A stretch of 64,000 nucleotides of DNA from Mustelus asterias (taxonomy: Eukaryota), in assembly GCF_964213995.1 (NCBI RefSeq), contig NW_027590139.1:1178001-1242000 (forward strand), written 5' to 3'. The position numbers and the translations under genes are program-made. The notes beneath the pieces were generated by a model. That model saw only the letters and a list, made by a program, of their open reading frames with translations, had not been told where the DNA came from and did not search any database. Each line of letters begins with the position of its first letter. The stretch's first letter is position 1. Below are positions 21,456 through 64,000 of this stretch, in pieces.

Positions 21456-22269
21456 GTTCAAAATCCAATGATACGCATATTACGATAAATTGGGCGACTC
21501 TGTCAGATCTTGATGTGATGTTTGGTTTCAGTTTTCCGACTGCAAATCCTCACCTTTGAATATGCTGTGAAATTGATTTAAAAAAGAAAAAAAGAGAGTG
21601 AGAGAGAACCCACAAAAACACAAAGGCAGGTTGTGAAATTGAGCTGAATGAATCTGGTAATTTGTGGGGCCGGCACTGGGAAAAAGAGACCAAGAAAACT
21701 GATGGATTGTCATAAAAACCCAACTGGTTCACTAATGTCCTTCAGGGAAGGGAACCTTTGAGCCAGTCTGAACCTATACAAGACCAGAGCTTCAAGGTGA
21801 AGAGGCAGCGGATGGGCGGGATTAAGAGATGTGGGAGGAGAAGAGGTGAAGGAAAGGATACATCTACAACCAGACAGAAACCCCCAAACCCTCATCTTCC
21901 ACCATTTAGAAAGACCAGGTTCACAGGTGAATGTGAACATCATCACCTCAAAGTCACACAGCATCGCGACTGGACTGAGATCCTGTCCTGGATTAGGAGA
22001 AGTTTCCTCCATTTAAAGAGTGAGAAACATGAAACGATTGTCTTCAGTTCACGATACAAACTCCACCCCGTGGACACTGACACCATCCCACTCTGGTGCT
22101 GAAGCAGGCTGTTTACAACCAGGTTCAAATATTTATTTTCTAAATCTGACTTTGCAGGGTCGACAAGGCCGTTTCCCGTGTCAAGGCCTATGCCTGGTCT
22201 GTGGGTGGAGAAGTACTAGTTGGGTACAACTGAGTGGCTTGCTGTGCCACATCAGTGGGAATTTAAGAT

Positions 22270-22640
22270 TCAACCAGGGAGCTGACAATGATTCTGAAGG
22301 GTTTGCGGATCCACAAAGTGTTTCCAAATCCTCCCAGCCACCGCCTAACGCTGACTCCGCTTCTCCGGGACAAACAAGCGCCAAGGACAGCAATGACACT
22401 GCGCATGCTCCACATCACAATGCCCGGGCACTGATTGACGGCAGCTCCGGACCAATAGGAAGAGGGGGCGAGGCTGGAGGACCGAGCGGGAGCGGCTGGT
22501 CCTCCAACCAATCGGAGTGAATGAGGGGCGGGACCTGAAGCATGCGCAGTGCGGGTAATGGCGACGGACGGTTTCCCTTTATCCAATTCCCGATGGGGAA
22601 CTTTAGAAAATTGAACACATCGACATCTGTGAGTAAAACA
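22270..22640. promoter_or_regulatory. Inverted copy of the ZNF promoter module; putative bidirectional promoter with + strand donor ct|gtgagt at 22629
   Basis: Reverse complement of ~49510-49790; lies between divergent ZNF loci 20610-21455 (-) and 24310-25110 (+). Confidence 0.6.
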
Positions 22641-22789
22641 CTTCCTTTTCTCCCCCTTTCCATTTCTTCTCTCATTCTGGGGGAAATTGGGGACTTGCAG
22701 CAACTGAAGGGAAAGGAAGTGAATCCAGGGAGGCTGCAGACTCTGGAAAGGTTGGCCCAGGTCTGTCTGTCTCTCTCTTAAACCAGAAA

Positions 22790-23985
22790 ATGATCCATTT
22801 CTGCCCACTGTTTGCTGTTAGCCAATCTTCTATCCACGCCAATATGTTATCCCCGCAGCATGAATTTTTATTTGCTGCAATAACCTTTGATGTGGCACCT
22901 CATCAAATGTCTTCTGGAAATCTGAGTACAGCACATCCACCGGTTTCCCTTTATCCAATTCCCGATGGGGAATTTTAGAAAATTGAACAACACATCAACT
23001 ATCTCACTCTGTTAAGACCCGAGAATGAAGCCCAGCAGGACCCGAGGACTCATCAGCCCACAGCTCCAACAGTTTGCTGAGGACTACTTCCCTGGGAATT
23101 GTGCTTTTTCAGAGTTCATCCCACACTTCTGTTTTCTGATTTCCAGCTGTTTCTGAGTTTTAACTGTGTCCTCTATTGTGAACACCGAGGCAAAATACTT
23201 GTTCAATTCATCTCCCAGCTCCTTATTTTTCATCATCAATTCCTGGACTCACTTTCTATTAGACAGTTAAGAAATGAGGTCGAGCAAGTGACTGAAGTGT
23301 CAGTCAGGGAGCACTATTGGGAGCACCAATAGTTTCAAAATAGTTCTGGAAAAAGATGGGACAGGTCCACAGGTCAAGGCCCTAAACAGGAGCAGGGCCA
23401 CTTTTGTGGGCATTAGGCAGGATCGAGCAGATGTCAATTCGGTGAGTTTGTTTGAAGGGAAAGGAATGACTGGCAAATGGGAGGTTTTAAAAGTGTGATA
23501 TCAAGAGTCCAGGGGCAGTATATTCCTGTTAAGATGAAGGGAAAGAATGGTAAATTTAGGGATCTCTGGCAGACAAGGGACATTGAGGCTCTGGTCAGGT
23601 AAAAGAAGGAAGCAGACATTGGGTTTAGGCAATTGGGGACAAGTGAATCACTCTGACTATAAAAAGTGTAAGAAAATACTGAAGAGGGAAATCAGGAGGA
23701 CAAAAAGAGGGTATGATATGGATCTGGCAGGTAAGATTAAAGACAATTCCAAGAGGTTCTATAGCTATATTAAGAGTAAAAGGGTGGCTAGAGAGAGAAT
23801 AGATCCCCTTAAAAATCAGTATGGCCATCTGTGTGTGGAGCCACAGGAGATGGGTGAGATTTTTAATGAATACTTCCCCTCTGTGTTTACTGCGGAGAGC
23901 ACCATGGGTGCTAAAGAAATAAGGGAAACAAGTGGTGATGTCTTGGGCACACGCATGCTACTTGGGAGGAGGTATCTGCAGCCTT
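22790..23985. mobile_element. CR1 fragments (minus 22790-23260, plus 23262-23985)
   Basis: KREIRRTKRGY..KIKDNSKRFYSYIKSKR..MGEIFNEYFPSVFT, CR1 ORF2 tether region. Confidence 0.8.
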
Positions 23986-24309
23986 ATAAAAGCAAATTAC
24001 TGCGGATGCTGGAATCTGAAACCAAGAGAGAAAATGCTGGAAAATCTCAGCAGGTCTGGCAGCCTCTGTAAGGAGAGAAAAGAGCTGATGTTTCTTGTCT
24101 AGATGACCCTTTGTCAAAGCTCTGAAACATCAATTCTTTTCTCTCCATACAGATGCTGCCAGACCTGCTGAGAATGGGGAGAGAGTGTGTGGGATGGAGA
24201 TTTACAGCTTTTGGGGAATGAGAGAGGAAAGAATGTTCCATAGAAATTGTCTGTTCTGAATTTCTATCCTGTACTGACACGGCTGACTTTTGTAAACTCA
24301 TTTTACAGG

Positions 24310-25110
24310 ATATTGAAAGAGGAATCACAGACCGAAATCTCAAACGTCACGTCTAGATCTGACAGAGTCATATTCCTTGGGAGCTGAATATCATCGGACT
24401 TTGAATCCAGAAGGAGAAATGATTGTCCAGTCTGTCGATTTGAAAAGATTTGAAATGTCAGTGTGAGTGAAAAAGCACCAACACACTGCCACACTTGAGT
24501 GAGTGTGTTCCAATGCTCTGACTAAAGAGCTTTAACCAGTTACACAGTCTGAATAAATATCACACCATTCACAGCGGGTAGAGACTGTAATCTTGTTCTG
24601 TGTGTGGACGAAGTTTCAACTAATTGTCCACCCAAGAGAGAGGTAAGGACACCTGCACCATGGAGAAACCATGAAAATGTGGGGACTGTGGGAAGGGATA
24701 CAGAGCCCCATTCCTGCTGGAAGCTCATCGGCGCAGCCACACTGGGGAGAAGCTGTTCATCTGCTCTCAGTGTGAGAAGGGATTTAATCAGTTCTCCAGC
24801 TTACGGATACACCAGCGAGTTCACACTGGGGAGAGACCATTCACCTGCTCTCAATGTGGGAAGGGATTCACTCAGTCATTCCACCTGCAGTCACATCACT
24901 CAGTTATCCCATTTACAAACACACCAGAGAGTTCACACTGGCGAGAGGCCATTCACCTGCTCTGTGTGTGGGAAGGGATTCAGTCTTTCATCCAACCTGC
25001 AGACACACCAGCGAGTTCACACTGGGGAGAGGCCGTTCACCTGCTCTCAGTGTGGGAAGAGTTTCAGCGTTTCATCCCAGCTGCTGAGACACCAGCAAGT
25101 TCACGAGTGA
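24310..25110 (+). pseudogene. C2H2 ZNF pseudogene
   Basis: ATG GAG AAA CCA TGA (W>stop) at 24660, internal finger deletion/frameshift; paralog of 27771-29216. Confidence 0.8.
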
Positions 25111-25412
25111 TTCCAGGGGTTGGATTCTGCTGTTATTGTTTCTGCTCTCAGTTGCATCCAGGACTGCATTTTGTTCATTCTCTCAGTTGGTCAATGGGAA
25201 GGGACAGAGGGTTTCTTTGTGCTGGACTGGCTGGTCTCAGCCTCCAGTGGGCTGATGCTCTTTGAGTCTTTTTGTGAATACCTGGTTTCAAATGTCACGA
25301 GGATCACAGAGTGACAGGGTGTTAGGAAGTTTAGAGATATTTAGTCAGAAGAAAACAGAGGTTGGCAGTGCAAAGGTACATTTCTGAATGGAGGGCTGTG
25401 ACAACTGACATT

Positions 25413-26855: not shown

Positions 26856-28121
26856 CATCCTTTGCTCCCTCAGCTTGACACATTTATTTGTCTGTCGAAA
26901 AGGATGGTCTTTTTCCTAATGTTCATAATTAAAGGGCAGCTTTCCCCAGGAGATGGCTGACATTTAAGGGGACAGTACATTAATATAGGACAGAGATATG
27001 TCTGGTGTTATATGGTACCCAGATTAGATATATTATTTATGTTTCTGTAATAAAATACATTTATTATTATTTCTTGCATTATAATATAATGCTGTAGCAA
27101 CGTTATACATTTCCAGTCATAAAGTCATTACAGCACAGAAGGAATCCAATTTGGTAACTCGAGTCCATGCTGACTCTCTGTATAACATTCCAGTCCCATT
27201 CCCCCTCTATATCCCCATTCTCCTGAAAGTTTATTTGCTTCAAGTGCCCATCCACTTTCCTTTTGAAATAGAATCCATAGATATGGATGGAGAGTTACAA
27301 CTTTTTGGGAATGAAATAGGAAAGAATCCCAAGGACAGTGAAGCCTCAGTCATCAACTATTTTCAAGAGAGAGATTGATTGGTTTCTAGATATTGAGGAT
27401 ATCAAGGGATATGGGTTTAGTGTGGGGAGAATGATGCTGAGGTAGATGAAAGAATTATCTCATTGAATAGTTTAAAAGGCTCGATGGGCCAAATGGCCGA
27501 CTGCAGCTCCTATTTGTTATGGTCTCTGTGTCCAGGACAGGAAGCAGTGAGCATGGATCTGTCAATCAGCCTCAATCAGCACCTTCAGGAGAATTGGGAG
27601 GGTGAATATTAGATACAGCAGAGTGAGAATGGAGGGAGAGTGTGTGGGATGGAGATTCACAGCTTTTTGGGGAATGAGAGAGGAAAGAATGTTCCATAGA
27701 AACTAGAATTGTCTGTTCTGAATTTCTATCCTGTACTGACACTGATGACTTTTGTGAACTCGTTTTACAGGATATTGGAAGAGGAATCACAGACTGAAAT
27801 CTCAAACTTCACGTCTAGATCTGACAGGATCATATTCCTTGGGAGCTGAATATCATCGGCCTTTGAATCTAGAAGGAGAAATGATTGTCCGATCTGTTGA
27901 ATTGAAAAGATTTCAAACATCAGTGTGACTGGAAAAGCACCAACACACGGCCACACTCAAGTGAGAGTCTTCCAGCGCACTGACTAAAGAGCTTTAACCA
28001 GTCACACAGCCTGAATAAATATCATATCATTCACAGCAGGGAGAGACTGTACCCGTGTTCTGTGTGTGGACGAGGCTTCAACTGATTGTCCACCCAAGAC
28101 AGAGGCAAGGACACCTGCACC

Positions 28122-29216
28122 ATGGAGAAACCATGGAAATGTGCGGACTGTGGGAAGAGGTACAGAGCCCCCTCTCTGCTGGAAGCTCATCGGCGCAGCC
28201 ACACTGGGGAGAGACCATTCACCTGCTCTCAGTGTGGGGAAGGATTCACTCAGTCATTCAGCCTGCAGTCACACCAGCGAGTTCACACTGGGGAGAGGCC
28301 ATTCACGTGTTCTCAGTGTGGGGAGGGATTCAGTCATTTATCCAGCCTGCGCAAACACCAGCGAGTTCACACTGGGGAGAGACTGTTCACCTGTGCTCAG
28401 TGTGGGAAGGGATTCACTTGTTCATCCAACCTGCGGAGACACCAGCCAGTTCACACAGGGGAGAGGCCATTCAGCTGCTCTCAGTGTGGGAAGGGATTCA
28501 CTCTGTCATCCAGCCTGCGGGCACACAAGCGAGTTCACACTGGGGAGAGACCATTCACCTGCTCTCAGTGTGGGAAGGGATTCACTCTGTCATCCCACCT
28601 GCGGAGACACCAGCGAGTTCACACTGGGGAGAGACCGTTCACCTGCTCTCAGTGTGGGAAGGGATTCACTTGTTCATCCAACCTGCAGACACACCAGCGA
28701 ATTCACACTGGGGAGAGGCCATTCACCTGCTCTCAATGTGGGGAGGGATTCATTCGGTCATCCCAGCTGCAGATACACCAGCGAGTTCACACTGGGGAGA
28801 GGCCATTCACCTGCTCTCAGTGTGGTAAGGGATTTACTCAGTCATCCAGCCTGTGGACACACCAGCGAGTTCACACTGGGGAGAGACCGTTCACCTGCCC
28901 TCAGTGTGGGGAGGGATTCACTCGATTAACCAGCCTGCGGATACACCAGCGAGTTCACACTGGGGAGAGGCCGTTCACCTGCTGTCAGTGTGGGAAGGGA
29001 TTCAGTGATTCATCCAGCCTGCTGACACATCAGCGAGTTCACACTGGGGAGAGGCCATTTACCTGCTCTCAATGTGGGAAGGGATTCACTCGCTCATCCT
29101 GCCTGCAGACACACCAGCAAGTTCACACTGGGGAGAGGCCGTTCAGCTGCTCTGTGTGTGAGAAGAGATTCAGTCTTTCATCCCACCTGCTGAGACACCA
29201 ACAAGTTCATGAGTGA
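28122..29216 (+). CDS. C2H2 zinc-finger protein, 13 fingers (364 aa)
   Basis: gcaccATGG start; 13 x 28-aa units, uninterrupted; acceptor ttttacag at 27770. Confidence 0.9.
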
Positions 29217-38770: not shown

Positions 38771-39284
38771 TACATTAGAACGGTCTGGGTATTCTGTATC
38801 TGAGATCATCAATATAATTTCTCCCATTGATCACTGGTTTTTAATAAAGTTTTACCTTGATACTGTGACATTGGTTTCCGGAGTATAATTGCCACCTTGT
38901 CGGAGAAACCCGCTAACAAATGGTGTGGAAGGGGTTCTGGGTTAATTAGCAGAACGACAGGCAGAGTCTGAGGTTTAGCAACAGCTGGGGAGGAAAGAGT
39001 TACAGGGATTCCCTGTACTGCCTGGGGTGGTGGTGGAGGCAGATACAATAGGGGCTTTTAGATAAGCACATGAATATGTAAGGAATAGAGGAATATGGAC
39101 CAAGGGCAGGCAGAAAGGAATAGTTTAATTTGGCATCATGTTTAACGCAACATCGTGGGCTGAAGGGTCTGTTCCTGTGCTGTACTGTTCTATGTTCTAT
39201 TTGTGATCTCCATTTAGAAAAAGGAAACAGAGGCACTGGAGAAGGGGCAAGAAAGATTCACAAGAATAATCCCAGAACTGTAAT

Positions 39285-40555
<1,271 letters not shown>

Positions 40556-41545: not shown

Positions 41546-42120
41546 TATAGTTTAGTTTTGATTGTTTATTAATTAGTGTCACAAGGAGGCTTACATTAAC
41601 ACTGCAATGAAGTCACTTGAAAATCATGAAAAAAGTGCAAACAATCTATGAAGTTACTGTGAGAGTCAGCATGGACTCGAGTTGTCCAATGGACTCCTTC
41701 TGTGCTGTAATGACTCTATAACTGGAAATATATAATGCAGCTACAGTACAATATGACAAGATTGGAATGATAAATGTATTTATTGCAGGACCAGGAATAA
41801 ACCTGTCTGATATAACAACACTAGACATATCTCTGTCCTATATTAATTTACTGTCCCCTTAAATGTCAGCCATCTCCTGGGGAAACCAGCCCTTTAATTG
41901 TGAACATTAGGAAAGAGATCATCCTTTTAGCCAGACAAATAAATGTGTCAAGCTGAGGGAGCAAAGGATGTCAATGTCTTTAAGAGAGAGAGACCTGGGC
42001 CAACCTTTCCAGAGTCTGCAGCCTCCCTGGATTCACTTCCTTTCCCTTCAGTTGCTGCAAGTCCCCAATTTCCCCCAGAATGAGAAAAGAAATGGAAAGG
42101 GGGAGAAAAGAAAGTGTTTT

Positions 42121-45100
42121 ACTCTCAGATGTTGGTTTCTTTTTGTTTATTACAAATAAATACAAATAAATACAAAACAATTACAAATACACAAAGAACA
42201 AATGTGAAAAAATACATTACCAATGGCTAACGCCATCCATTTATCAGTTACTACCTTCCATTTCTGAAGGGTTCATCGTCAATTACAGTTTTCCAGGGCA
42301 TTGCCCTCAAAATACACCTCCATCTACAAATCATAATCTACAAATCTACAAACATTAACACAACACTACAACTGTACACAACAAAAAATAAACACTGAAG
42401 CATAAGGGCACCGTCCCCTGGGTTTGTCCACCTGCCGGGGGATGCAACCCTCCAGTGGTACTCATATCCGGGGGTTACACCTTATGGATGTTCAGCCGGA
42501 GGGGGGAAATGGGGGAAACCACCCCGAACCTACTCAATCCGGAATCCCTTCCGGAATTTCAGCCGGGGCGGTGGGAGAGTCTCTCCAGGGTACTCAGTTC
42601 GGGCCTGCCTTCCCAATTTTTCTCCCGGAGAATAAAAATCCCTCTGGTGTTACTATGTCCGGGGCTTCACCACCCAGAACTTTCCCCAAGTGGATGTCAC
42701 ACCCCCCGGGGGTGACTTTATCCAGGGGGGGATGCCCCCCAGGCCACAAATAACGCAAGAAAATAGACGGGGGCTGGAACAAACCACCAACTACCATAAC
42801 AGGAAAACCACATATTACAATAACAAACAATCCATGAAAAATACATTACCGATGGCTAACACCATCCATTTATCAATTACTACCTTCCATTTCGGAAGGG
42901 TTCATCGTCAATTACAGTTTTCCAGGGCATTGCCCTCAAAATACACCTCCATTTACAAATCATAATCTACAAATCTACAAACATTAACACAACACTACAA
43001 CTGTACACAACAAAAAATAAACACTGAAGCATAAGGGCACCGTCCCCTGGGTTTGTCCACCTGCCGGGGGATGCAACCCTCCAGTGGTACTCATATCCGG
43101 GGGTTACACCTTACGGATGTTCAGCCGGAGGGGGGAAATGGGGGAAACCACCCCGCCTACTCAATCCGGAATCCCTTCCGGAATTTCAGCCGGGGCGGTG
43201 GGAAAGTCTCTCCAGGGTACTCAGTTCGGGCCTGCCTTCCCAATTTTTCTCCCGGAGAATAAAATCCCTCTGGTGTTACTATGTCCGGGGCTTCACCACC
43301 CAGAACTTTCCCCAAGTGGATGTCACACCCCCCGGGGGTGACTCCATCCAGGGGAGGATGCCCCCCAGGCCACAAATAACGCAAGAAAATAGACGGGGGC
43401 CGGAACAAACCACCAACTATCATAACAGGAAAACCACATATTACAATAACAAACAATTCATGAACAACCATACAATTGTGAAACATTTCGGAGGCATCGC
43501 CTTCCAGAGCTTCGCCCATCAACATTCCACCGTCCGAAGTCGACAACGCTCAACTACAGTCCTCCAAAGTCCACCACTCCGGGCCAGAACTTCCAAAATC
43601 ACACCCACTGGGGCTGCACCGTCTGGGGTCACACCTTCCGCGGCTGAACCTTCCGAAACCATAGTTCCCAAATGGCTCCTCCCTGGCTTGGGTCTTCCGA
43701 GATTGCATCTACCTGGGCCACGCCTTTCAAGGCACAGGAATCCCAGCGAGAGCAGCATTCAACAAGCCCCAGCCGAAACAAAAGGTTCCCGCACAAGTCA
43801 CGAACCCAAGCACTTGAAACAGAAACTTCACGCCGACCAAGGCGTTCCTCCCAGCGGCCACATTTCCAAAAGCTCACCGCAAGGCGCACATTAAGCCCGC
43901 CTTGAACTCCTTATCCTCTGCCCGCCCCCTGCCTGGAGCACACCATACTGGCCAACACGCAAAGCGAACGGCCAATATGGTGGACTGGCTGGACAATCCA
44001 ATCTTTCCCACTCACAGATGTGGATTTCTTTTTGTTTATTACAAATACGTTAATACAAAACAATTACAAATACACAAAGAACAAATGTAAAAAAAATACA
44101 TTACCAATGGCTAATGCCATCCATTTATCAGTTACTACCTTCCATTTCGGAAGGGTTCATCGTCAATTACAGTTTTCCAGGGCATTGCCCTCAAAATACA
44201 CCTCCATTTACAAATCATAATCTACAAATCTACAAACATTAACACAACACTACAACTGTACACAACAAAAAAATAAACACTGAAGCATAAGGGCACCGTC
44301 CCCTGGGTTTGTCCACCTGCCGGGGGATGCAACCCTCCAGTGGTACTCATATCCGGGGGTTACACCTTACGGATGTTCAGCCAGAGGGGGGAAATGGGGG
44401 AAACCACCCCGCCTACTCAATCCGGAATCCCTTCCGGAATTTCAGCCGGGGCGGTGGGAGAGTCTCTCCAGGGTACTCAGTTCGGGCCTGCCTTCCCAAT
44501 TTTTCTCCCGGAGAATAAAAATCCCTCTGGTGTTACTATGTCCGGGGCTTCACCACCCAGAACTTTCCCCAAGTGGATGTCACACCCCCCGGGGGTGACT
44601 TTATCCAGGGGGGGATGCCCCCCAGGCCACAAATAATGCAAGAAAATAGACGGGGGCCGGAACAAACCACCAACTACCATAACAGGAAAACCACATATTA
44701 CAATAACAAACAATTCATGAAAAATACATTACCGATGGCTAACACCATCCATTTATCAATTACTACCTTCCATTTCGGAAGAGTTCATCGTCAATTACAG
44801 TTTTCCAGGGCATTGCCCTCAAAATACACCTCCATTTACAAATCATAATCTACAAATCTACAAACATTAACACAACACTACAACTGTACACAACAAAAAA
44901 TAAACACTGAAGCATAAGGGCACCGTCCCCTGGGTTTGTCCACCTGCCGGGGGATGCAACCCTCCAGTGGTACTCATATCCGGGGGTTACACCTTACGGA
45001 TGTTCAGCCGGAGGGGGGAAATGGGGAAACCACCCCGCCTACTCAATCCGGACTGCCTTCCGGAATTTCAGCCGGGGCGGTGGGAGAGTCTCTCCAGGGT

Positions 45101-47779
45101 ACTCAGTTCGGGCCTGCCTTCCCAATTTTTCTCCCGGAGAATAAAAATCCCTCTGGTGTTACTATGTCCGGGGCTTCACCACCCAGAACTTTCCCCAAGT
45201 GGATGTCACACCCCCCGGGGGTGACTCCATCCAGGGGGGGATGCCCCCCAGGCCACAAATAACGCAAGAAAATAGACGGGGGCCGGAACAAACCACCAAC
45301 TATCATAACAGGAAAACCACATATTACAATAACAAACAGTCCATGAACAACCATACAATTGTGAAACATTTCGGAGGCATCGCCTTCCAGAGCTTCGCCC
45401 ATCAACATTCCACCGTCCGAAGTCGACAACGCTCAAATACAGTCCTCCAAAGTCCACCACTCCGGGCCAGAACTTCCAAAATCACACCCACTGGGGCTGC
45501 ACCGTCTGGGGTCACACCTTCCGCGGCTGAACCTTCCGAAACCATAGTTCCCAAATGGCTCCTCCCTGGTTTGGGTCTTCCGAGATTGCATCTACCTGGG
45601 CCACGCCTTTCAAGGCACAGGAATCCCAGCGAGAGCAGCATTCAACAAGCCCCAGCCGAAACAAAAAGTTCTTGCACAAGTCACGAACCCAAGCACTTGA
45701 AACAGAAACTTCACGCCGACCAAGGCGTTCCTCCCAGCGGCCACATTTCCAAAAGCTCACCGCAAGGCGCGCATTAAGCCCGCCTTGAACTCCTTATCCT
45801 CTGCCTGGAGCACACTATACCGGCCAACACGCAAAGCGAACGGCCAATATGGTGGACTGGCTGGACAATCCAATCTTTCCCACTCACAGATGTGGATTTC
45901 TTTTTGTTTATTACAAATACGTTAATACAAAACAATTACAAATACACAAAGAACAAATGTGAAAAAAATACATTACCAATGGCTAACGCCATCCATTTAT
46001 CAGTTACTACCTTCCATTTCGGAAGGGTTCATCGTCAATTACAGTTTTCCAGGGCATTGCCCTCAAAATACACCTCCATTTACAAATCATAATCTACAAA
46101 TCTACAAACACTAACACAACACTACAACTGTACACAACAAAAAATAAACACTGAAGCATAAGGGCACCGTCCCCTGGGTTTGTCCACCTGCCGGGGGATG
46201 CAACCCTCCAGTGGTACTCATATCCGGGGGTTACACCTTACGGATGTTCAGCCGGAGGGGGGAAATGGGGGAAACCACCCTGCCGACTCAATCCGGAATC
46301 CCTTCCGGAATTTCAGCCGGGGCGGTGGGAGAGTCTCTCCAGGGTACTCAGTTCGGGCCTGCCTTCCCAATTTTTCTCCCGGAGAATAAAAATCCCTCTG
46401 GTGTTACTATGTCCGGGGCTTCACCACCCAGAACTTTCCCCAAGTGGATGTCACACCCCCCGGGGGTGACTTTATCCAGGGGGGGATGCCCCCCAGGCCA
46501 CAAATAACGCAAGAAAATAGACGGGGGCCGGAACAAACCACCAACTACCATAACAGGATAACCACATATTACAATAACAAACAATCCATGAAAAATACAT
46601 TACCGATGGCTAACACCATCCATTTATCAATTACTACCTTCCATTTCGGAAGGGTTCATCGTCAATTACAGTTTTCCAGTGCATTGCCCTCAAAATACAC
46701 CTCCATTTACAAATCATAATCTACAAATCTACAAACATTAACAACACTACAACTGTACACAACAAAAAAATAAACACTGAAGCATAAGGGCACCGTCCCC
46801 TGGATTTGTCCACCTGCCGGGGGATGCAACCCTCCAGTGGTACTCATATCCGGGGGTTACACCTTACGGATGTTCAGCCGGAGGGGGGGAAATTGGGGAA
46901 ACCACCCCGCCTACTCAATCCGGACTGCCTTCCGGAATTTCAGCCGGGGCGGTGGGAGAGTCTCTCCAGGGTACTCAGTTCGGGCCTGCCTTCCCAATGT
47001 TTCTCCCAGAGAATAAAAATCCCTCTGGTGTTACTATGTCCGGGGCTTCACCACCCAGAACTTTCCCCAAGTGGATGTCACACCCCCCGGGGGTGACTTT
47101 ATCCAGGGGGGGATGCCCCCCAGGCCGCAAATAACGCAAGAAAATAGACGGGGGCCAGAACAAACCACCAACTGTCATAACAGGAAAACCACATACTACA
47201 ATAACAAACAATCCATGAACAACCATACAATTGTGAAACATTTCGGAGGCATCGCCTTCCAGAGCTTCGCCCATCAACACTCCACCGTCCGAAGTCGACA
47301 ACACTCAAATACAGTCCTCCAACGTCCACCACTCCGGGCCAGAACTTCCAAAATCACACCCACTGGGGCTGCACCGTCTGGGGTCACACCTTCCGCAGCT
47401 GAACCTTCCGAAACCATAGTTCCCAAATGGCTCCTCCCTGGCTTGGGTCTTCCGAGACTGCATCTACCTGGGCCACGCCTTTCAAGGCACAGGAATCCCA
47501 GCGAGAGCAGCATTCAACAAGCCCCAGCCGAAACAAAAAGTTCTTGCACAAGTCACGAACCCAAGCACTTGAAACAGAAACTTCACGCCGACCAAGGCGT
47601 TCCTCCCAGCGGCCACATTTCCAAAAGCTCACCGCAAGGCGCACATTAAGCCCGCCTTGAACTCCTTATCCTCTGCCCGCCCCCTGCCTGGAGCACACCA
47701 TACTGGCCAACACGCAAAGCGAACGGCCAATATGGTGGACTGGCTGGACAATCCAATCTTTCCCACTCACAGATGTGGA
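42121..47779 (-). mobile_element. Three tandem copies of a ~1.88-kb putative non-autonomous non-LTR retroelement
   Basis: Units of 1889, 1872 and 1883 bp separated by 15-bp repeats at 42121, 44010, 45882, 47765; each ends (minus) in a T/G-rich tract + AATAAA + caaaaagaaa; each has an internal ~630-bp duplication. The repeat is certain, its retroelement nature is inferred. Confidence 0.7.
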
Positions 47780-48270
47780 CGACAGGAGAAACTTTGACTC
47801 TCTCTGAAGATCAATCTTCATTCACACAAAGCCCACGCTCTGATTGGCTGGAGGACCAGAGTCCTTCCGGTCCTCCAACTCTTCCCATTGGTCAACACCT
47901 CAGCATGAAGATCAGAGGGTGGGTTCTCCCCCGCACATGCGCAGCTTCCCCTCTCCCTCGCACATGTGTAGTCCTGGGCCGGGGGGCGGGAGAGCTCACT
48001 GAGCGGCTTCTCGCTCTTGCCGGAGCCGTCAGCCAGTTGCCTGGAAACCTTGGTTCAAGGAGGTGTAGGGGGAGGGGAACAATGGGTGGGGGCGGGGCTC
48101 CTGGGTCCGCGCGCCCGGGCCTGCGCATTGGAACCCAGAGACGTCACCGCGGAGCAGAGTGATTCCTATTGGCTGATTCAGGCAGGGCTCTATTGTGACG
48201 TCACAATGCGGAAGTTGTCCAATGAGCTTCCGAGTGAAACTCCCTCCTCTGTTCAACATCTGGGAGGAAA
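47780..48270. promoter_or_regulatory. CpG-rich, probably bidirectional ZNF promoter
   Basis: cacatgcgca, tgtagt, ggggcggg, ctgcgca, 16-bp CRE palindrome attgtgacgtcacaat 48192-48207, cggaagt; intron-1 homology on both sides. Confidence 0.6.
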
Positions 48271-48474
48271 TCAATGTTTCCCCCTTTCCATTTCTTTCCT
48301 CATTCTGGGGGAAGTTGGGGACTTGCAGCAACTGAAGGAAATGAAGTGAATTCGGTCTGTATATTCCACACATTTTTACTCCAGTAATGTAGACATTTAT
48401 CTGTCTGGCAGCCTGCATGGAAATTTTCAGCTCTCTGCATCCAGGGCAAGAAGCAGTGAGCATGGATCTGTCAA

Positions 48475-49015
48475 TCACACATGAGGATGGCCTCAACCGG
48501 GATCTTGGGTTCATGTCACACTATCTGTAACCCCCACGACTTGCCTGGGCTTGCAAAATCTCACTAACTGTCCTGGCTGGACACAATGCACATCTCTTTA
48601 ACCTGTGCTTAACCCTCTCTCCACTCTCATTGTCTGTACCTTTAAGACTTGATTACGTTTAAAGACTCGTATTCCAACCATTATCTTGTAAATTGAGTTT
48701 GTGTCCTTATATGCCCTGTTTGTGAACAGAACTCCCACTCACCTGATGAAGGGGCAGCGCTCTGAAAGCTTGTGGCTTGTGCTACCAAATAAACCTGTTG
48801 GGATTTTAACCTGGTGTTGTGAGATTACTTACTGTGCTTACCCCAGTCCAACGCCGGCACATCTTTGGACTGTGGAAGGAAAACCGGAACACCCGGAAGA
48901 AACCCACACAGACACGGGGAGAATGTAGAAACTCTGCACAGACAGTGACCCGAGGCTGGAATTGAACCCGGGTCCCTGGCGCTGTTAGGCAGCTGCACTA
49001 ACCACTGTGCCACCG
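48475..49015. mobile_element. Penelope 3' fragment (+, 48475-48860, hammerhead 48740-48774) and V-SINE (-, 48858-49015)
   Basis: catgaggatggcctcaaccgg..cacCTGATGA..GAAAgcttgtg; SINE head on the minus strand. Confidence 0.85.
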
Positions 49016-49069
49016 GGTCACATGTCAGTGCCATCGCCCGACTCCAGCCCAGTCTCAGCTCATCTGGAA

Positions 49070-49152
49070 CCCTCACCCATTCCATTGTGACGTCACACCC
49101 TCACCCATTCCATTGTGACGTCACACTCTCACCCATTCCATTGTGACGTCAG
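49070..49152. promoter_or_regulatory. 28-bp tandem repeat x3, each with a TGACGTCA (CRE) palindrome
   Basis: tgacgtca at 49088, 49116, 49144; paralog at ~61195-61275. Confidence 0.7.
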
Positions 49153-49199
49153 GGCTTCACTCTCCGATCACAATCCCTGCCGGCCTCCCACATGCAGCC

Positions 49200-49720
49200 T
49201 CAATGGCGGCAGTCAGCCCGGGTCTAACACTACAAGCTGCCGCTCCATTTGGTACAAAGCGGGGGACCGGGAAGTTCATTTCCGGGGTTTGGGTTTGAAC
49301 AACATGTTTACAAAGTCTCTCCACCCACCCGCCACATTTATCATTCCCCGCGCGCCGCCCTCTACCTCGTATTGCTCTCGCTTCCAAACTAAAACCGGCC
49401 GTCCGTCGCCATTACCCGCACTGATGTGGAGATGCCGGCGTTGGACTGGGGTAAACACAGCAACAAGTCAAACAACACCAGGTTAAAGTCCAACAGGTTT
49501 ATCTGGTTCACCCGCACTGCGCATGCTTCAGGTCCCGCCTCTCATTCACTCCGATTGGTTGGAGGACCAGCCGCTCCCGCTCGGTCCTCCAGTCCCGCCC
49601 CCTCTTCCTATTGGTCCGGCGCTGCCGTCAATCAGTGCCCGGGCATTGTGATGTGGAGCATGCGCAGTGTCATTGCTGTCCTTGGCGCTTGTTTGTCCCG
49701 GAGAAGCGGAGTCAGCGTTA
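49200..49720. promoter_or_regulatory. ZNF promoter module with Penelope insert 49424-49509
   Basis: caatggcggc, ccgggaagt, actgcgcatg, GC box, ATTGG; insert flanked by acccgcactg duplication and absent from the 61540 paralog. Confidence 0.65.
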
Positions 49721-50089
49721 GGCGGTGGCTGGGAGGATTTGGAAACACTTTGAGGATCCGCAAACCCTTCAGAATCATTGTCAGCTCCCTGGTTTGCAGC
49801 TGCGGGGCTTCTCCCTCCCTCCCTCCCGGGAACAGGCCCAGGTTAACGGCCCCATCCTGGCTCAGCCACTGGAGGATGGTTCACATCAGAGGATGGGGGA
49901 GGGGGACAATAAATAAGAGGTTACACTTTGGCCTCAAATCAATGAGGACTCTGATCTCTGGGAAGGAAGGAAACCCTGGGAGGTGGGCGGGGAGGATTCA
50001 CAAACACCCGCTGGAGGTCCCAACACACCCAATAAGACCCATTGGTTTTATTGTCAGTCTGCAGACAGCAGCTGGAGAACTGAACCCAA

Positions 50090-50256
50090 TAAGAGTTTTA
50101 ACAACACCAGGTTAAAGTCCAACAGGTTTATTTGGTAGCAAACACCATTAGCTACCATTAGGTGTTTGCTACCAAATAAACCTGTTGGACTTTAACCTGG
50201 TGTTGTTAAAACTCTTACTGTGTTCACCCCAGTCCAACGCCAGCATCTCCACATCA
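50090..50256. mobile_element. Fold-back (palindromic) Penelope terminal insertion
   Basis: ~57-bp perfect inverted arms with a 14-nt loop; flanked by agaactgaaccca duplication; paralog at 62355-62506. Confidence 0.85.
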
Positions 50257-50814
50257 GAACTGAACCCAGACAGAGGAGAGGGAGGGAGAAAACTGGGAGT
50301 GGAGAAAAGAAATGGTGAGATGGGTTTGGATTTCAGCCCAGGGAGGAGGGAGAGTTTGTGGGACAGGAATTTATTGATTTGGGGCAACAAGAGAGGAAGA
50401 AATGTTCCAGAGAATTAGAATTGCCTGTTCAAAATTTCTATCCTGGACTGACAGTGATTAATTTTGTAAACTCCTTTTACAGGTGAGGTGAAGAAACATC
50501 ACATCAAAATCAGACAGAGTCTCGATTCACTCGGGCTTAAATATCCTCAGACTTTGAATGTGGAAGGAGAAATGTTTGTCTTCTGTCTGGAGGAGAAGAT
50601 TTCAAACATCAGTGCGTCTGAAAAAGCACCAAGAAACACGCACACCCGAGTGAGAGTGTTTCAGTGAGTTGACTGTGGAAAGAGCTTTATCCAGTTACGC
50701 AGCCTTAAAAAACATCACAGCATTCACAGCGAGGAGAAACTGTCCACGTGTTCTGTGTGTGGATGAGGCTTCAACTGATCGTTTAACCTGGAGAAACATA
50801 AGGACACCAGCACC

Positions 50815-51654
50815 ATGGAGAAACCGTGGAAATGTGGGGACTGTGGGAAAGGATTCAGTTACTCTTCCCTGCTGGAAAACCATCGGCGCAGTCACACTGG
50901 TGAGAGACCGTTCACCTGTTCTGTCTGTGGGGAGGGATTCATTCAGTCATCTGGCCTTTGGTCTCACCAGAGAATTCACACTGAGGAAAAGCCATTCACC
51001 TGCACCTCCTGTGGGAAGAGGTTCAGGCATTCTTCAGCACTCACTGTGCACCAACGCACTCACACCGGGGAGAGACCATTCATCTGCTCCGTGTGTGGGA
51101 AGGGATTCACTCAGTCATTCCACCTGCTGTCACACCAGCGAGTTCATACTGGGGAGAGGCCGTTCACCTGCTCCGACTGTGGGAAGGGATTCACTGGGTC
51201 ATCCCACTTACTGTCACACCAGCGAGTTCACATTGAGGAGAAGCCATTCAGCTGCACTGACTGTGGACGGAGTTTCAGACAGGCATCCTCCCTCATTGCA
51301 CACCAGCGAATTCACACTGGGGAGAGACCGTTTACTTGCTTTTTGTGTGGAAAGGGATTCACAGTTTTACCCACCCTGCTGAGACACCAGAAAATTCACA
51401 CTGAAGAGAAGCCATTCAGCTGCACTGACTGTGGAAAGAATTTCAGGCAGTCATCCAACCTCACTGCTCACCGACGCACTCACACTGCAGAAAGGCCATT
51501 CACATGCTCCGTGTGTGGGAAGGGATTCGCAAAGTCTTTCAACCTGCTGGCTCACCAACGCACTCACACTAAGAGGCCATTCAACTGCTCTGTGTGTGGG
51601 AAGGGATTCACTCAGTCACAATGGCTCCTGAGACATCAACAAGTTCACAAGTGA
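50815..51654 (+). CDS. C2H2 zinc-finger protein, 10 fingers
   Basis: gcaccATGG start, intact array ending HQQVHK*. Confidence 0.9.
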   Translation: MEKPWKCGDCGKGFSYSSLLENHRRSHTGERPFTCSVCGEGFIQSSGLWSHQRIHTEEKPFTCTSCGKRFRHSSALTVHQRTHTGERPFICSVCGKGFTQSFHLLSHQRVHTGERPFTCSDCGKGFTGSSHLLSHQRVHIEEKPFSCTDCGRSFRQASSLIAHQRIHTGERPFTCFLCGKGFTVLPTLLRHQKIHTEEKPFSCTDCGKNFRQSSNLTAHRRTHTAERPFTCSVCGKGFAKSFNLLAHQRTHTKRPFNCSVCGKGFTQSQWLLRHQQVHK

Positions 51655-52919
51655 CTGCAGGGGTCGGATTCTGCTGTTTTTGCTGCTGTTCAGTATTGAC
51701 AGTCTGACAATATTTTATTTCTGCTGATGTGAACAAACCCTATAACTAGTTGGAATTTAATATTCTGGAAATGTCACTGATTTTCGGGGCTGCAATGTCA
51801 CTTTTTAAAAGCAACACCTGTGATCTTCCCTCTTAACTGAAGAACTCTCACAGGAACCTGTTGAGAATAAAATTAAGAACTTTTGCTTCAATTCTAATTT
51901 GATCTTTGGGGCAAAATCTACAATTCATTCTCTGAAAGATCCATCTGCAGGGCACAAAGTATTTATTTTCAATGCTTGTATTGAGATTTTCTGGAAAGCT
52001 GCTCTTTGATTTTTAAGGGCTATTTTTTGGTTTCCAGGGCATCGTTTTCCATTCTCAGTAACTCCTTTATTAGTGATGTAGTCACGTAGTAACATTACCT
52101 TTTGTGTTTCTGTTAGTTTACTTCTTTGAATAAGATAGCACAAATACTGAAGACTGTGTATATATTAAATCTTTTAAATTGGAATCTATGAATGATATTT
52201 TTTGTTAACTTATTTTAAAAATACTCCCATACTCTCTTTCCAAAATGAGAATTCTAACTATTTGACACAAGGTAACTGAATCAGATGTTTACTGGTTCAG
52301 ACGGTGGAGCAGGAAAAATCTCTCCCGATTCTGATCTTCATTGTGTGTGGATTTACATTGATAACCCATCAATAACCTCACTACACCAGCTGAGATCAGC
52401 TCTGACCGGGGATTCTGTATGTTGTCTGTGAACGTTAAACTGCAAATAAAAGCAGTTTAGAATATGAACCTGGATGAATGGATCTCAATTTCTAATGTGA
52501 TGACCCAAGTGATTGTAAGTACGTTCACAATATCTGTTTACTCAAATTCCTGAGCTGTACACCCCACCTCCTGAGATATATAAAAATAATCAAGACTTGT
52601 TCAGCAGAATGGGGAAAGCTCTGCCGATGGTCGGATCATTCCTTTTGAGGCTCACACTGCTATGAAACTAGTTCTGTAGCAGGAAGACACAACTCCTCCA
52701 CACATCACCGATAGGCTGCTGAGTCAGTGAACCTCTTTTCTCAAAATAGGTGGCAAAGCTGTTCCTCCAGTTTGAGACTGTCTCTGCAGATGTAGCAACA
52801 TCAGGAGAGACAGAATCTGTGATTGGAGGAGATGGTCCTCACAGTTTCTGTCTCTCCCATGTACAGGATGATTTATTTTTTCCAGTAGTTCCTCCCAAGA
52901 CAGAATTTCTGCGGGCCTT

Positions 52920-58502: not shown

Positions 58503-59093
58503 TCACTCGTGAACCTGATGGTGTTTCAGCAGGTGAGGTGACTGAGTGAATCCCTTCCCACACACGGAGCAGGTGAATGGCCTGTCCCCAGTGTGAATTC
58601 GCTGGTGTGCCTGCAAGTTGGATGACTGAGCGAATCCCTTCCCACACTGAGAGCAGGTGAACGGCCTCTCCCCAGTGTGAACTCGTTGGTGTCTCAGCAG
58701 GCTGGATGGATCACAGAATCCCTTTCCACACTGAAAGCAGGTGAATGGCCTCTCCCCAGTGTGAACTGTCTGGTGTCTCAGCAGGCTGGATGAATCACCG
58801 AATCCCTTCCCACACTGAGAGCAGGTGAACGGTCTCTCCCCAGTATGAATGCGCTCGTGTGCCCGCAGGCTGGATGACCGAGTGAATCCCTTCCCACACT
58901 GAGAGCAGGTGAATGGCCTCTCCCCAGTGTGAACTCGCTGGTGTGTCTGCAGGCTGGATGACCGAGTGAATCCCTTCCCACACTGAGAGCAGGTGAATGG
59001 CCTCTCCCCAGTGTGGTTGCGCCGATGTGCTTCCAGCTGTGATGGGGCTCTGTATCTCTTCCCACAGTCCCCACATTTCCATGGTTTCTCCAT
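58503..59093 (-). CDS. C2H2 zinc-finger protein, 7 fingers (196 aa)
   Basis: gcaccATGG at 59093; 7 x 28 aa; acceptor at 59445. Confidence 0.88.
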
Positions 59094-60356
59094 GGTGCAG
59101 GTGTCCTTGCCTCTCTCTTGGGTGGACAATCAGTTGAAGCCTCGTCCACACACAGAACACGGGTACCGTCTCTACCCGCTGTGAATGGTGTGGTATTTAT
59201 TCAGGCTGTGTAACTGGTTAAAGCTCTTTAGTCCGAGCACTAGAACACTCTCACTCGAGTGTGGCAGTGTGTTGGTGCTTTTCCAGTCACACTGATGTTT
59301 GAAATCTTTTCAAATCAACAGACTGGACAATCATTTCTCCTTCTAGATTCAAAGTCCGATGATATTCAGCTCCCAAGGAATATGACTCTGTCAGATCTAG
59401 ACGTGACGTTTGAGATTTCGGTCTGTGATTCCTCTTTCAATATCCTGTAAAACAAGTTTACAAAAGTCAGCAGTGTCAGTACAGGATAGAAATTCAGAAC
59501 AGACAATTCTAGTTTCTATGGAACATTCTTTCCTCTCCCATTCCTCAAAAGCTGTAAATCTCCATCCCACACACTCTCCCTCCATTCTCACTCTGCTGTA
59601 TCTAATATTCACCCTCCCAATTCTCCTGAAGGTGCTGATTGAGGCTGATTGACAGATCCATGCTCACTGCTTCCTGTCCTGGACACAGAGACCATAACAA
59701 ATAGGAGCTGCAGTCGGCCATTTGGCTCATCGAGTCTTTTAAACTATTCAATGAGATAATTCGTTCATCTACCTCAGCATCATTCTCCCCACACTAAACC
59801 CATATCCCTTGATATCTTCAATATCGAGAAACCAATCAATCTCTCTCTTGAAAATAGTTGATGACTGAGGCTTCACTGTCCTCAGGGGTTGAGAATTCCA
59901 AATCTTTACCACATCCTTGAGTGAAGAAATCCCCCCACATCTTAGCTTTTGCTCCATCTTCTTGTCTGTTCCCCATAACCTTTGACACCCTTGTCAGTCA
60001 AAAATCTGTCTAACTGGAATATATTCAATGATCCTCAGCCTCCACTGGTCCCTGTGGAAGAGAAATCCAAAAGACGAACAATCCTCTGAGGGAAGAGATG
60101 TCTGGAAAGATATAATGTAGCTACAGTTCCATATTACAAAATATTCAGATCCCAAGGAATATGACTGTCTCGATGTGACAGTTGAGATTTTTGCCTGTGA
60201 TTCCTCGTTCAAAATCTTGTGAAATGAGTTTGCAAAAGTCATCACAGTTAATATAGGATAGAAATTCAGAGCAGACAATTCTACTTTCTATGGAACATTC
60301 TTTCCTATTTCATTCCCAAAAAGTTGTAAATCTCCATCCATATCAATGGATTCTCA
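58950..60356 (-). repeat. Inverted segmental duplicate of ~27265-28260
   Basis: Shared CR1 tail, small upstream exon, intron and leader; the 27-kb copy lacks ~410 bp. Confidence 0.85.
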
Positions 60357-60844: not shown

Positions 60845-61140
60845 ATACAGTGTAGAAGGAGGCCATTCAGCCCATCGAGCCTGCACCGATAACAATCCCT
60901 ATCCAGGCCCTATCCACATATTTACCTGTTAATTCCCCCTGATACCAGGTGGCAATTTATCGTGGCCAATCCGTCGAACCGGCACATCTTTGGACTGTGG
61001 GAGGAAACCTGAACACCTGGAGGAAACCCACACAGACACGAGGAGAATGTAGAAACTCTGCACAGACAGCGACCCGAGGCTGGAATTGAACCCGGGTCCC
61101 TGGCACTGTTAGGCAGCTGCACTAACCACTGTGCCACCGG
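60845..61140 (-). mobile_element. HE1/V-SINE-like SINE
   Basis: Minus strand ggtggcacagtggttagtgcagctg..gggttcaattcc. Confidence 0.85.
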
Positions 61141-61559
61141 GCCACATGTCAGTGCCATCGCCCGACTCCAGCCCAGTCTCAGCTCATCTGGAACCCTCAC
61201 CCATTCCATTGTGACGTCACACTCTCACCCATTCCATTGTGACATCACACGCTCACCCATTCCATTGTGACGTCAGGGCTTCACTCTCCGATCACAATCC
61301 CTGCCGGCCTCCCACATGCAGCCTCAATGGCGGCAGTCAGCCCGGGTCTAACACTACAAGCTGCCGCTCCATTGGGTACAAAGGGGGGGACCGGGAAGTT
61401 CATTTCCGGGGTTTGGGTTTGAACAACATGTTTACGAAGCCTCTCCACCCACCCGCCACATTTATCATTCCCCGCGCGCCGCCCTCTACCTCGTATTGAT
61501 CTCGCTTCCGAGTGAAAACCGCTTGTCCGTCGCCATTACCCGCACTGCGCATGCTTCAG

Positions 61560-61870
61560 GACCCGCCCCTCATTCACTCCGAATGGTTGGAGGACCAGCC
61601 ACTCCCGCTCGGTCCTCCAGCCCCGCCCCTCATTCACTCCGATTGGTTGGAGGACCAGCCGCTCCCGTTCGGTCCCCCAGCCCCGCCCCTCATTCACTCC
61701 GATTGGTTGGAGGACCAGCCACTCCCGCTGGTCCTCCAGTCCCGCCCCTCATTCACTCCGATTGGTTGGAGGACCAGCCGCTCCCGTTCGGTCCTCCAGC
61801 CCCGCCCCTCATTCACTCCGATTGTTGGAGGACCAGCCGCTGCCACACGGTCCTCCAACCCCGCCCCCTC
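61560..61870. repeat. ~60-bp promoter minisatellite, about 5 copies (GC box + CCAAT + inverted repeat)
   Basis: cccgcccctcattcactccgattggttggaggaccagccgctcccgttcggtcctccag repeated; single copy in the 49530-49600 paralog. Confidence 0.92.
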
Positions 61871-63064
61871 TTCTGATTGGCCCGGAGCTGCCGTCAATCA
61901 GTGCCCGGGCATTGTGATGTGGAGCATGCGCTGTGTCATTGCTGTCCTTGGCGCTTGTTTGTCCCGGAGAAGCGGAGTCAGCGTTAGGCGGTGGCTGGGA
62001 GGATTTGGAAACACTTTGTGGATCCGCAAACCCTTCAGAATCATTGTCAGCTCCCTGGTTTGCAGCTGCGGGGCTTCTCCCTCCCTCCCTCCCGGGAACA
62101 GGCCCAGGTTAACGGCCCCATCCTGGCTCAGCCACTGGAGGATGGTTCACATCAGAGGATGGGGGAGGGGGACAATAAATAAGAGGTTACACTTTGGCCT
62201 CAAATCAATGAGGACTCTGATCTCTGGGAAGGAAGGAAACCCTGGGAGGTGGGCGGGGAGGATTCGCAAACACCCGCTGGAGGCCCCAACACCCCCAATA
62301 AGACCCATTGGTTTTATTGTCAGTCTGCAGACAGGAGCTGGAGAACTGAACCCTGTAAGAGTTTTAACAACACCAGGTTAAAGTCCAACAGGTTTATTTG
62401 GTAGCAAACACCATTAGCTACCATTAGGTGTTTGCTACCAAATAAACCTGTTGGACTTTAACCTGGTGTTGTTAAAACTCCAGTCCAATGCCGGCATCTC
62501 CACATCAGAACTGAACCCAGACAGAGGACAGGGAAGGAGCAAACTGGGAGTGGAGAAAAGAAATGGTGAGATGGGTTTGGATTTCAGCCCAGGGAGGAGG
62601 GAGAGTTTGTGGGACAGGAATTTATTGATTTGGGGAACAAGAGAGGAAGAAATGTTCCAGAGAATTAGAATTGCCTGTTCAAAATTTCTATCCTGGACTG
62701 ACAGTGATTAATTTTGTAAACTCCTTTTACAGGTGAGGTGAAGAAACATCACATCAAAATCAGACAGAGTCTCGATTCACTTGGACTTAAATATCCTCAG
62801 ACTTTGAACGTGGAAGGAAAAATGTTTGTCTTCTGTCTGGAGGAGAAGATTTCAAACATCAGTGTGACTGAAAAAGCACCAAGATACACGCACACCCGAG
62901 TGAGAGTGTTTCAGTGAGTTGACTGTGGAAAGAGCTTTATCCAGTTACACAGCCTGAAAAAACATCACACCATTCACAGCAAGGAGAAACTGTACACGTG
63001 TTCTGTGTGTGGATGAGGCTTCAACTGATCGTTTAACCTGGAGAAACATAAGGACACCAGCACC

Positions 63065-63903
63065 ATGGAGAAACCGTGGAAATGTGGGGACTGTGGGAAA
63101 GGATTCAGTTACCCTTCCCTGCTGGAAAACCATCGGCGCAGTCACACTTTTGAGAGACCGTTCACCTGTTCTGTCTGTGGGGAGGGATTCATTCAGTCAT
63201 CTGGCCTTTGGTCTCACCAGAGAATTCACACTGAGGAAAAGTCATTCACCTGCACCTCCTGTGGGAAGAGGTTCAGGCATTCTTCAGCACTCACTGTGCA
63301 CCAACGCACTCACACCGGGGAGAGACCATTCATCTGCTCCGTATGTGGGAAGGGATTCACTCAGTCATTCCACCTGCTGTCACACCAGCGAGTTCATTCT
63401 GGGGAGAGGCCGTTCACCTGCTCCGACTGTGGGAAGGGATTCACTGGGTCATCCCACTTACTGTCACACCAGCGAGTTCACATTGAGAAGAAGCCATTCA
63501 GCTGCACTGACTGTGGACGGAGTTTCAGACAGGCATCCTCCCTCATTGCACACCAGCGAATTCACACTGGGGAGAGACCGTTTACTTGCTTTGTGTGTGG
63601 AAAGGGATTCACAGCTTTACCCACCCTGCTGAGACACCAGAAAATTCACACTGAAGAGAAGCCATTCCGCTGCACTGTGGAAAGAATTTCAGGCAGTCAT
63701 CCAACCTCACTGCTCACCGACGCACTCACACTGCAGAAAGACCATTCACATGCTCCGTGTGCGGGAAGGGATTCAATCGGCCATCCAACCTCTCTGCTCA
63801 CCAGCGAGTTCACACAGGGGAGAGGCCATTCAACTGCTCTGTGTGTGGGAAGGAATTCACTCAGTCACAATGGCTCCTGAGACATCAACAAGTTCACAAG
63901 TGA
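63065..63903 (+). pseudogene. ZNF duplicate of 50815-51654 with a 4-bp deletion in finger 8 (7-finger truncated product or pseudogene)
   Basis: tgcactgtggaaag versus tgcactgactgtggaaag at ~63676; frameshifted stop at 63880. Confidence 0.8.
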
Positions 63904-64000
63904 CTGCAGGGGTTGGATTCTGCTGTTTTTGCTGCTGTTCAGTATTGACAGTCTGACAATATTTTATTTCTGTTGATGTTAACAAACCCTATAACTCGCT

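Follow-up and report, generated by a model that had tools for sequence, protein, structure and literature searches.

The closest described counterparts of the element reported here are the crocodilian SINEU-1, SINEU-2 and SINEU-3 families and Tx1-Mar, a long interspersed nuclear element (LINE) of the Tx1 group whose target preference these passengers share (Kojima, 2015; PMC4494074; papers given by PMC number are cited here for the excerpts drawn on). SINEU copies are often arranged in tandem, their transcription is proposed to start from flanking sequence, and SINEU-1 has no LINE sharing its 3' end; the target is a Mariner DNA transposon, and a few SINEU-1B copies lie in introns of a RING/B-box gene family that is not presented in those excerpts as a target. 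Other Tx1-clade LINEs (Xenopus Tx1L, YTX2_XENLA; Keno, Kibi and Koshi) encode two open reading frames (ORFs) with APE endonuclease and reverse transcriptase (RT) domains and have target preferences, the clade's targets given there being transposons, snRNA and rRNA genes, satellites and microsatellites (PMC4494074). In R2 (PMC3774820) and R1Bm/SART1 (PMC7265360), the target is co-transcribed, and upstream target sequence on the RNA yields uniform 5' junctions, while downstream target bases aid accurate priming (PMC3774820, PMC7265360, PMC3747384); for human L1, four matching nucleotides are enough for priming (PMC3649969). In a 64,000-nt stretch of the Mustelus asterias genome (contig NW_027590139.1, positions 1,178,001 to 1,242,000; hereafter the window), we analyzed a stacked element that shares tandem arrangement, presumed transcription from flanking sequence and lack of a LINE with the same 3' end with SINEU-1, whereas its target is the first exon and splice donor of a host protein-coding family, the C2H2 zinc-finger (ZNF) genes. 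We consider it probable that its units are a young non-coding retroposon, located mostly at the ZNF exon-1 donor and copied in trans by target-primed reverse transcription (TPRT) with the proteins of a Tx1-clade LINE. By analogy, its mode of action would be that of SINEU with Tx1-Mar, combined with the use of target sequence on the RNA known from R2 and R1. No element with a ZNF exon-1 donor target was found in the literature searched, which left Repbase, Dfam, supplements and most subscription papers outside its scope; the first-pass annotation likewise knew of none.

On the minus strand of the window, four target copies of 15 bp bound three stacked units (42121-47779), all distinct, non-coding and ~1.87 kb long, in the coordinates and order first described (Table 1). 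In each unit, a unique head of 542 nt is followed by two internal repeats of ~627 nt each and by a T-rich tail of ~75 nt with AATAAA, which ends in AATAAACAAAAAGAAA; in U3, the AATAAA-containing tail ends at 42136. The boundary repeat had been taken for host sequence and indeed spans a ZNF exon-1/intron-1 junction. U1, U2 and U3 differ pairwise by 1.5-2.0%. Among 34 complete units compared, U2 has 7 differences to a copy on another contig (L017) versus 27-31 to its stack siblings, U1 has its nearest relative at another locus (19 differences versus 31-36 to siblings), and U3 is equidistant. Since the siblings are not nearest relatives, the stack was assembled from separate copies and not by local duplication, although some of its junctions may derive from read-through multimers.

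Genome searches covered the 3.68-Gb assembly. The head search gave 316 candidates, of which 40 were scored and 30 fetched; at 29 of 29 fetched loci besides the window's own, the head directly follows a target-like ...CTGTGAGT. As exact patterns, the head joined to the target (CTGTGAGT) matched 177 times and the head altogether 182 times (the patterns are not perfectly nested), whereas the reversed control of the joined pattern matched 0 times. The unit thus has about 180 copies of full length. The exact tail pattern occurs 264 times, and the tail joined to the target 136 times, against 0 for its reversed control; the differences from the controls exclude chance in both cases. By exact pattern there are also 96 proper empty target sites. 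A target pattern joined to an A6 tail gave 0 matches, which excludes only A6-tailed inserts at that exact site, this pattern being ill-suited to the unit tail. One locus, L117, was discarded as a chance pattern match. The head count alone is no proof of targeting, because the RNA probably carries exon 1; the proof is carried by the tail count and the flanks. Among 21 distinct outer flanks, median identity is 0.80 for a length of 60 nt and 0.64 for 120 nt; the same comparison gives 0.993 for the unit's first 540 nt (downstream flanks were judged by viewing and do not enter these figures). Exon-2-like sequence follows 19 of 20 filled sites, and within 10 kb, 18 of the 20 show two or more same-strand ZNF linkers; ZNF linkers were found downstream of 0 of 75 stray loci, whose sequences are shorter (4-10 kb).

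These flanks also bear on the explanation that a single insertion multiplied as ZNF genes underwent segmental duplication, gene conversion and tandem duplication. ZNF clusters do duplicate, some filled loci are near-identical, and long arrays exist (C140); moreover, flank similarity correlates with unit similarity (rho 0.47), which indicates that duplication or leader carry-over contributes. However, flanks that are 64-80% identical around units that are 99% identical, truncated stray copies with target site duplications (TSDs) on many chromosomes and stack siblings that are not nearest relatives contradict duplication as the sole cause, which we regard as highly improbable, while it still contributes to copy number. 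The narrower version raised at the outset, a unit present only here through one insertion plus tandem duplication, fails on the same dispersed copies and sibling distances.

Measured by the definition of a target-specific element as one with more than 20% of its flanks in a single sequence (PMC4494074, in the excerpts used), both the unit (136 of 264) and the intact Tx1 copies described below (34 of 37) qualify as target-specific; these shares are copy counts, not event counts. Strict, R2-like site-specificity is contradicted by the stray unit copies and by the short stray Tx1 tails, which occur frequently (C1-C3, about 518 Mb, contain 100 of them). The unit therefore shows a strong preference, not a strict specificity, for the ZNF exon-1 donor. 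The proposal that it targets a multicopy ZNF exon/intron junction thus holds for the heads and for the genes downstream of them, but about half of the tails lie elsewhere. Likewise, the expectation that all copies directly follow CTGTGAGT is borne out for nearly all heads and not for 5'-truncated strays or for copies at a second target in a long terminal repeat (LTR)-like repeat; copies in unrelated flanks, named beforehand as an observation that would speak against targeting, do exist beside the 136 tails at the target.

Signs of retroposition come from 40 regions around tails, fetched from large chromosomes: one proved to be a chance match, four contain older copies within a ZNF cluster, another four hold full-length copies in the LTR-like repeat, and the other 31 are solo copies. 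The head is missing in 30 of the 31 solo copies, with variable 5' starting points and a fixed 3' end. TSDs of 11-16 bp that start at the tail flank 13 of the 31, as well as L039, and were not found at the remaining 18. The unit was thus spread by retrotransposition through TPRT, in agreement with the L1/Tx1-type retroposition suspected from the window; as had also been supposed, it is a dispersed non-autonomous retroposon, with copies across the genome and no coding remnant. The family is real and young.

The unit has no long ORF; its longest frame has no Pfam match, its head frame has no protein relative in a database search, and an Rfam search of 41900-48400 gave a single weak match (E 0.78) below the gathering score. 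It lacks the tRNA-, 5S-, 7SL- or snRNA-derived head of a short interspersed nuclear element (SINE), and differs from SINEU both in this and in its length of 1.87 kb. Two possible origins were tried and rejected: an ORF2 remnant (apart from a single positional alignment that is weak at E about 6, profile hidden Markov model (HMM) and database searches were negative) and a deletion derivative of the local Tx1 LINE (best blastn match 13 nt; tblastn and HMM searches not significant). By sequence, the unit belongs neither to the SINEs nor to the deletion derivatives of this LINE. Longer copies with the same ends that encode APE and RT had been anticipated; no longer copy with the unit's own ends was found, and the Tx1 at the site differs from the unit in its ends and shows no similarity to it in the searches above, which makes it a candidate helper in trans and not a parent. 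The unit might instead be the truncated 3' end of another LINE with its own present or past helper, as a long body rich in T, an AATAAA and a tail of its own would allow, and older relatives at 72-89% identity exist (L094, L128, L143, L144, L145, L146, L149). We consider this origin improbable, since a coding remnant was not found, ~97% of heads begin at the target, and 0 of 40 tail regions extend into an ORF-bearing version of the unit within the 4 kb examined upstream. The older subfamilies L094, L143, L144, L146, L149 and L128 carry their own shared 5' leaders ending target-like. A formal parallel for the unit is the 5'-transducing SVA group with a MAST2 exon, likewise a ~2-kb non-coding retroposon that uses a host promoter and carries host exon 1 (PMC4494074, same excerpts).

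A Tx1 tail, ...TTGACCT(T/A)AAAAGAGG, stands directly before the target 266 times. The corresponding element of ~7 kb has an ORF1 with zf-CCHC and an ORF2 with APE, RT and zf-RVT; in Pfam, RVT_1 and Exo_endo_phos pass the cut-offs, while zf-CCHC (E 0.0015) and zf-RVT (E 0.004) fall below them. Along 99% of its length, its ORF2 has 49% identity to that of Xenopus Tx1L (1332 bits, versus 272 bits to human L1 ORF2p), and fragments of the protein match entries from rays and sharks at 64-70%. Its domain order and similarity place the LINE in the Tx1 clade, which it resembles in having two ORFs, APE plus RT and a target preference; the suspected involvement of such a LINE at the target is supported by the Tx1 tails at the same site. 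It departs from the clade members listed in PMC4494074 (excerpts used) in that its targets are ZNF first exons, with at least two sites about 50 bp apart. The copies at the donor site are mostly 5'-truncated or broken and 3-10% diverged. Intact copies belong to a different subfamily: in a protein search, 43 of the 60 matches scored have an open frame of at least 1300 aa without a stop, none of them on C1-C22, and of 40 fetched copies of this subfamily, 36 retain such an uninterrupted ORF2 and differ from one another by 0.4%. The 3' junction is TCTCT(CT)GAATG, either ~50 bp upstream of the donor in exon 1 (24 copies) or in the captured exon copy with which another element begins (10); three copies were assigned elsewhere, and three lack a 3' end. 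Thus, 34 of 37 with a 3' end sit in ZNF exon 1 or in the element's captured copy of it. The youngest subfamily (L201-L240; for example L202, G000:C71:15017927-15027631) forms tandem stacks and has a diverged exon-1 copy plus a tRNA-Val-like remnant at its start; this captured exon makes automatic TSD calls at the 5' ends unreliable. At stray Tx1 copies, no TSD was found in over half of 40. The unit is linked to Tx1 by the shared site, the TSD length and co-stacking (L094, L227, L204), as in the case of SINEU and Tx1-Mar.

Several other kinds of cargo gather at the donor site. Copies resembling tRNA-Arg, tRNA-Val and tRNA-Asp, some with a 16-nt Tx1 tail, occur at L041, L043, L057, L060, L082, L083, L089, L096 and L098. 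At L080, L081 and L084, the Tx1 3' untranslated region is joined at the target to a ~140-nt insert whose resemblance to a small structured RNA is a visual impression only. A contig of X1, an independent RNA-like run, joins a Tx1 tail to the target on L160:1507.

Use of the GTGAGT as a donor, also claimed from the window sequence, is seen at the empty paralogue L160, where five X3 contigs and one X7 contig diverge from the genomic sequence at the G of GTGAGT; what follows in them matches an exon-2 start of the window behind ttttacag (30/31 nt for X3). These are contigs from other organisms, RNA-like by a guess at their status, and other contigs run into the intron or elsewhere; at 21800-25300, the exon-1/exon-2 joint is absent among the 15 joints listed out of a set with 300 more, too small a share to count against it. 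The TSD comprises 9 nt of exon and 6 nt of intron and so spans the junction, which leaves the unit at intron position +6 with a donor on both sides. The insertion was thus rightly placed just inside the intron, whereas the cut itself is most likely within exon 1, 9 nt upstream of the GT. An insertion at the donor site is predicted to leave the mRNA probably spliceable.

The mechanism that we propose builds on direct observations: dispersal, independent flanks, 5' truncation, TSDs of 11-16 bp, donor use, downstream ZNF exons and intact Tx1 copies at the same exon. The unit would have no promoter of its own and would be transcribed from the host ZNF promoter or, in one clade, from the LTR-like repeat. 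Its RNA would begin with host sequence and run a few bases beyond the tail into the next target copy. After a nick 9 nt upstream of the GT, the primer would pair with these read-through bases, over ~4 nt at stray sites and over a longer stretch at true paralogues, and the host-derived 5' leader would let the cDNA join by homology. Priming and joining of this kind would account for uniform full-length copies and a duplicated donor, and stacking would follow because each insertion recreates the target site. Only copies landing behind a promoter would become new sources, which would make the preference self-reinforcing. SVA is not known to insert again in the gene family that supplied its promoter. 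The AATAAA lies ~10 nt before the target copy (44025-44040 in the window and equivalent positions), a spacing that would place 3' cleavage inside CCAACA and could explain the ~4 matching nucleotides at stray sites.

One clade of units (support 0.999) occupies the LTR-like repeat at TCC(C/T)TGATT (L105/L106 at G000:C19:82.81-82.83 Mb, L115, L133, L138, L150); the C19 array at this repeat has turned satellite-like. The full-length copies at the LTR site contain 190-390 bp of duplicated local sequence, after which comes the leader of a single donor with 26 nt of ZNF exon, the pattern expected from joining by 5' homology. Of 33 solo loci considered for a triplet test, 15 were untypable, three were typed at the LTR site and 15 were tested; the LTR-clade marker goes with the stray triplet TCC (5/5 with the marker versus 1/10 without, p=0.002). 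The stray-site bases sit in both TSD copies, where a TSD was found, and so pre-existed in the target. For Tx1 (40 tails hand-picked from the 100 listed, nine dropped as too short), the 3' haplotype predicts the stray triplet in 17 of 31 copies versus 8.7 after shuffling (p=0.002), and at stray sites the match to the lineage's on-target flank reaches base 4 and then falls to background. These results suggest that read-through RNA helps choose the insertion site; enzyme specificity probably contributes as well.

The same retroposon and Tx1 helper could also operate with the site set solely by the endonuclease, provided that subfamilies cutting CCA, GCA, ACA, TCT and TCC each moved one lineage. 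Target choice in the Tx1 clade is attributed mainly to the endonuclease (PMC4494074, in the excerpts used), endonuclease residues differ between old and young subfamilies here, and a sister Tx1 is present at the LTR site. We nevertheless judge this account unlikely, since a non-coding unit cannot pick its helper's enzyme, yet its lineages retain their own triplets. Moreover, tails of this Tx1 family start with TCC in 0 of the 100 listed from chromosomes (those of the old type start with CC in 16 of 16 listed), an ATCCAC junction travels with one unit haplotype across differing flanks, and no young intact helper of the CCAAC type was found in 29 copies. As to how far the RNA itself decides, we advance only tentatively, as possible and still short of probable, that target choice is inherited through it, a loosely specific Tx1 enzyme putting cargo at sites that match the host flank of the source copy. 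In R2, R1 and L1, pairing refines a site set by the protein (excerpts cited above), whereas the non-coding lineages here appear to inherit sites from the location of the source copy.

Several observations weigh against the proposed retroposon, its helper and its RNA-guided targeting. As many as 128 of 264 tails lie away from the target, and segmental duplication inflates the counts (for example L312/L314/L317 and the C19 array). The unit shares no sequence with Tx1, only the last tail bases looking alike. ORF2 is intact in 0 of 29 donor-site Tx1 copies (nine long and 20 others), and intact Tx1 copies have their junction at TCTCT, not CCAAC, so that this LINE is only a candidate helper. Old and young Tx1 endonucleases differ at several residues, and a changed enzyme specificity explains the LINE's own shifts equally well; a different endonuclease could also come from a sister Tx1 that has a ...CAAAAGAAA tail and is present at the LTR site (L138). 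Related copies in the triplet tests are not independent, and both transcription of the unit and splicing of filled genes are predictions. The host gene of this stack is broken by stops and frameshifts in exon 2. In L138:2300-2600 (element orientation), the LTR site carries a stack of two sister-Tx1 3' ends that differ in their tails.

The targets of sequence-specific LINEs listed in the excerpts cited are RNA genes, repeats and transposons; the target here is the first exon and donor of a host protein-coding family, from which the element would gain a promoter while mRNA with a donor-site insertion probably stays spliceable. In fish, repression of transposons by ZNF families has been reported (PMC10547256, whose excerpts used here do not mention cartilaginous fish). 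An element in ZNF promoters would be expressed alongside likely repressors and could alter them. If target choice is inherited through the RNA, an element landing behind a multicopy promoter (ZNF exon 1, LTR) would home to its paralogues and could switch target without a change of protein, and the family colonized here, a C2H2-ZNF cluster, would be of a kind implicated in transposon silencing. Intact Tx1 copies diverged by 0.4% and a passenger with two target lineages make the shares of enzyme and RNA in LINE site choice testable, which is also relevant to RNA-programmed gene insertion.

The neighboring sites of the window are listed with the stack in Table 1. An empty paralogous site had been proposed at 22621-22785: the intron downstream is correct, but in place of the normal exon 1 there is upstream a ~60-nt piece duplicated from ~22940-23000. 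The diverged empty site proposed at 48254-48350 belongs to another first-exon type (ATCTGGGAGGAAATC, no GT there), which Tx1 does use; the partner ZNF ORF lies at 50779-51651.

Table 1. Features of the target-site stack and neighboring ZNF sequences in the window
Feature	Position	Strand	Remark
Host ZNF non-coding exon 1 and CCAAT-rich promoter edge	47771-47900 (5' limit approximate)	-	Same sequence family as 30 empty sites
Target copy, outermost upstream, TCCACATCTGTGAGT	47765-47779	-	9 nt end of host exon 1 plus donor GTGAGT (47770-47765)
Unit U1, 1868 bp	45897-47764	-	Pairwise unit comparison
Target copy between U1 and U2, TCCACATCTGTGAGT	45882-45896	-	Sequence match
Unit U2, 1857 bp	44025-45881	-	Pairwise unit comparison
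Target copy between U2 and U3, TCCACATCTGTGAGT	44010-44024	-	Sequence match
Unit U3, 1874 bp	42136-44009	-	Head 44009-43468, repeat A ~43467-42841, repeat B ~42841-42210
Terminal target copy, CCAACATCTGAGAGT	42121-42135	-	Donor mutated to GAGAGT; then normal intron start AAAACACTTTC
Host ZNF exon 2	39280-40547	-	Stops and frameshifts, pseudogene-like; acceptor-like site near 40547
First exon/intron start of head-to-head partner ZNF gene, GGGAGGAAATC type	48254-48350	+	Same type carries Tx1 tails
Unfilled target and paralogue intron start	22620-22785	+	Exon 1 replaced by duplicated fragment

ZNF genes stand head to head around short CCAAT-rich bidirectional promoters, as at 47780-48254 in the window and in paired pattern matches elsewhere. 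The window also contains recent segmental duplicates of ZNF gene units at 92-96% identity (48854-51747 versus 60979-63996, and 27332-28696 versus 58519-59882).

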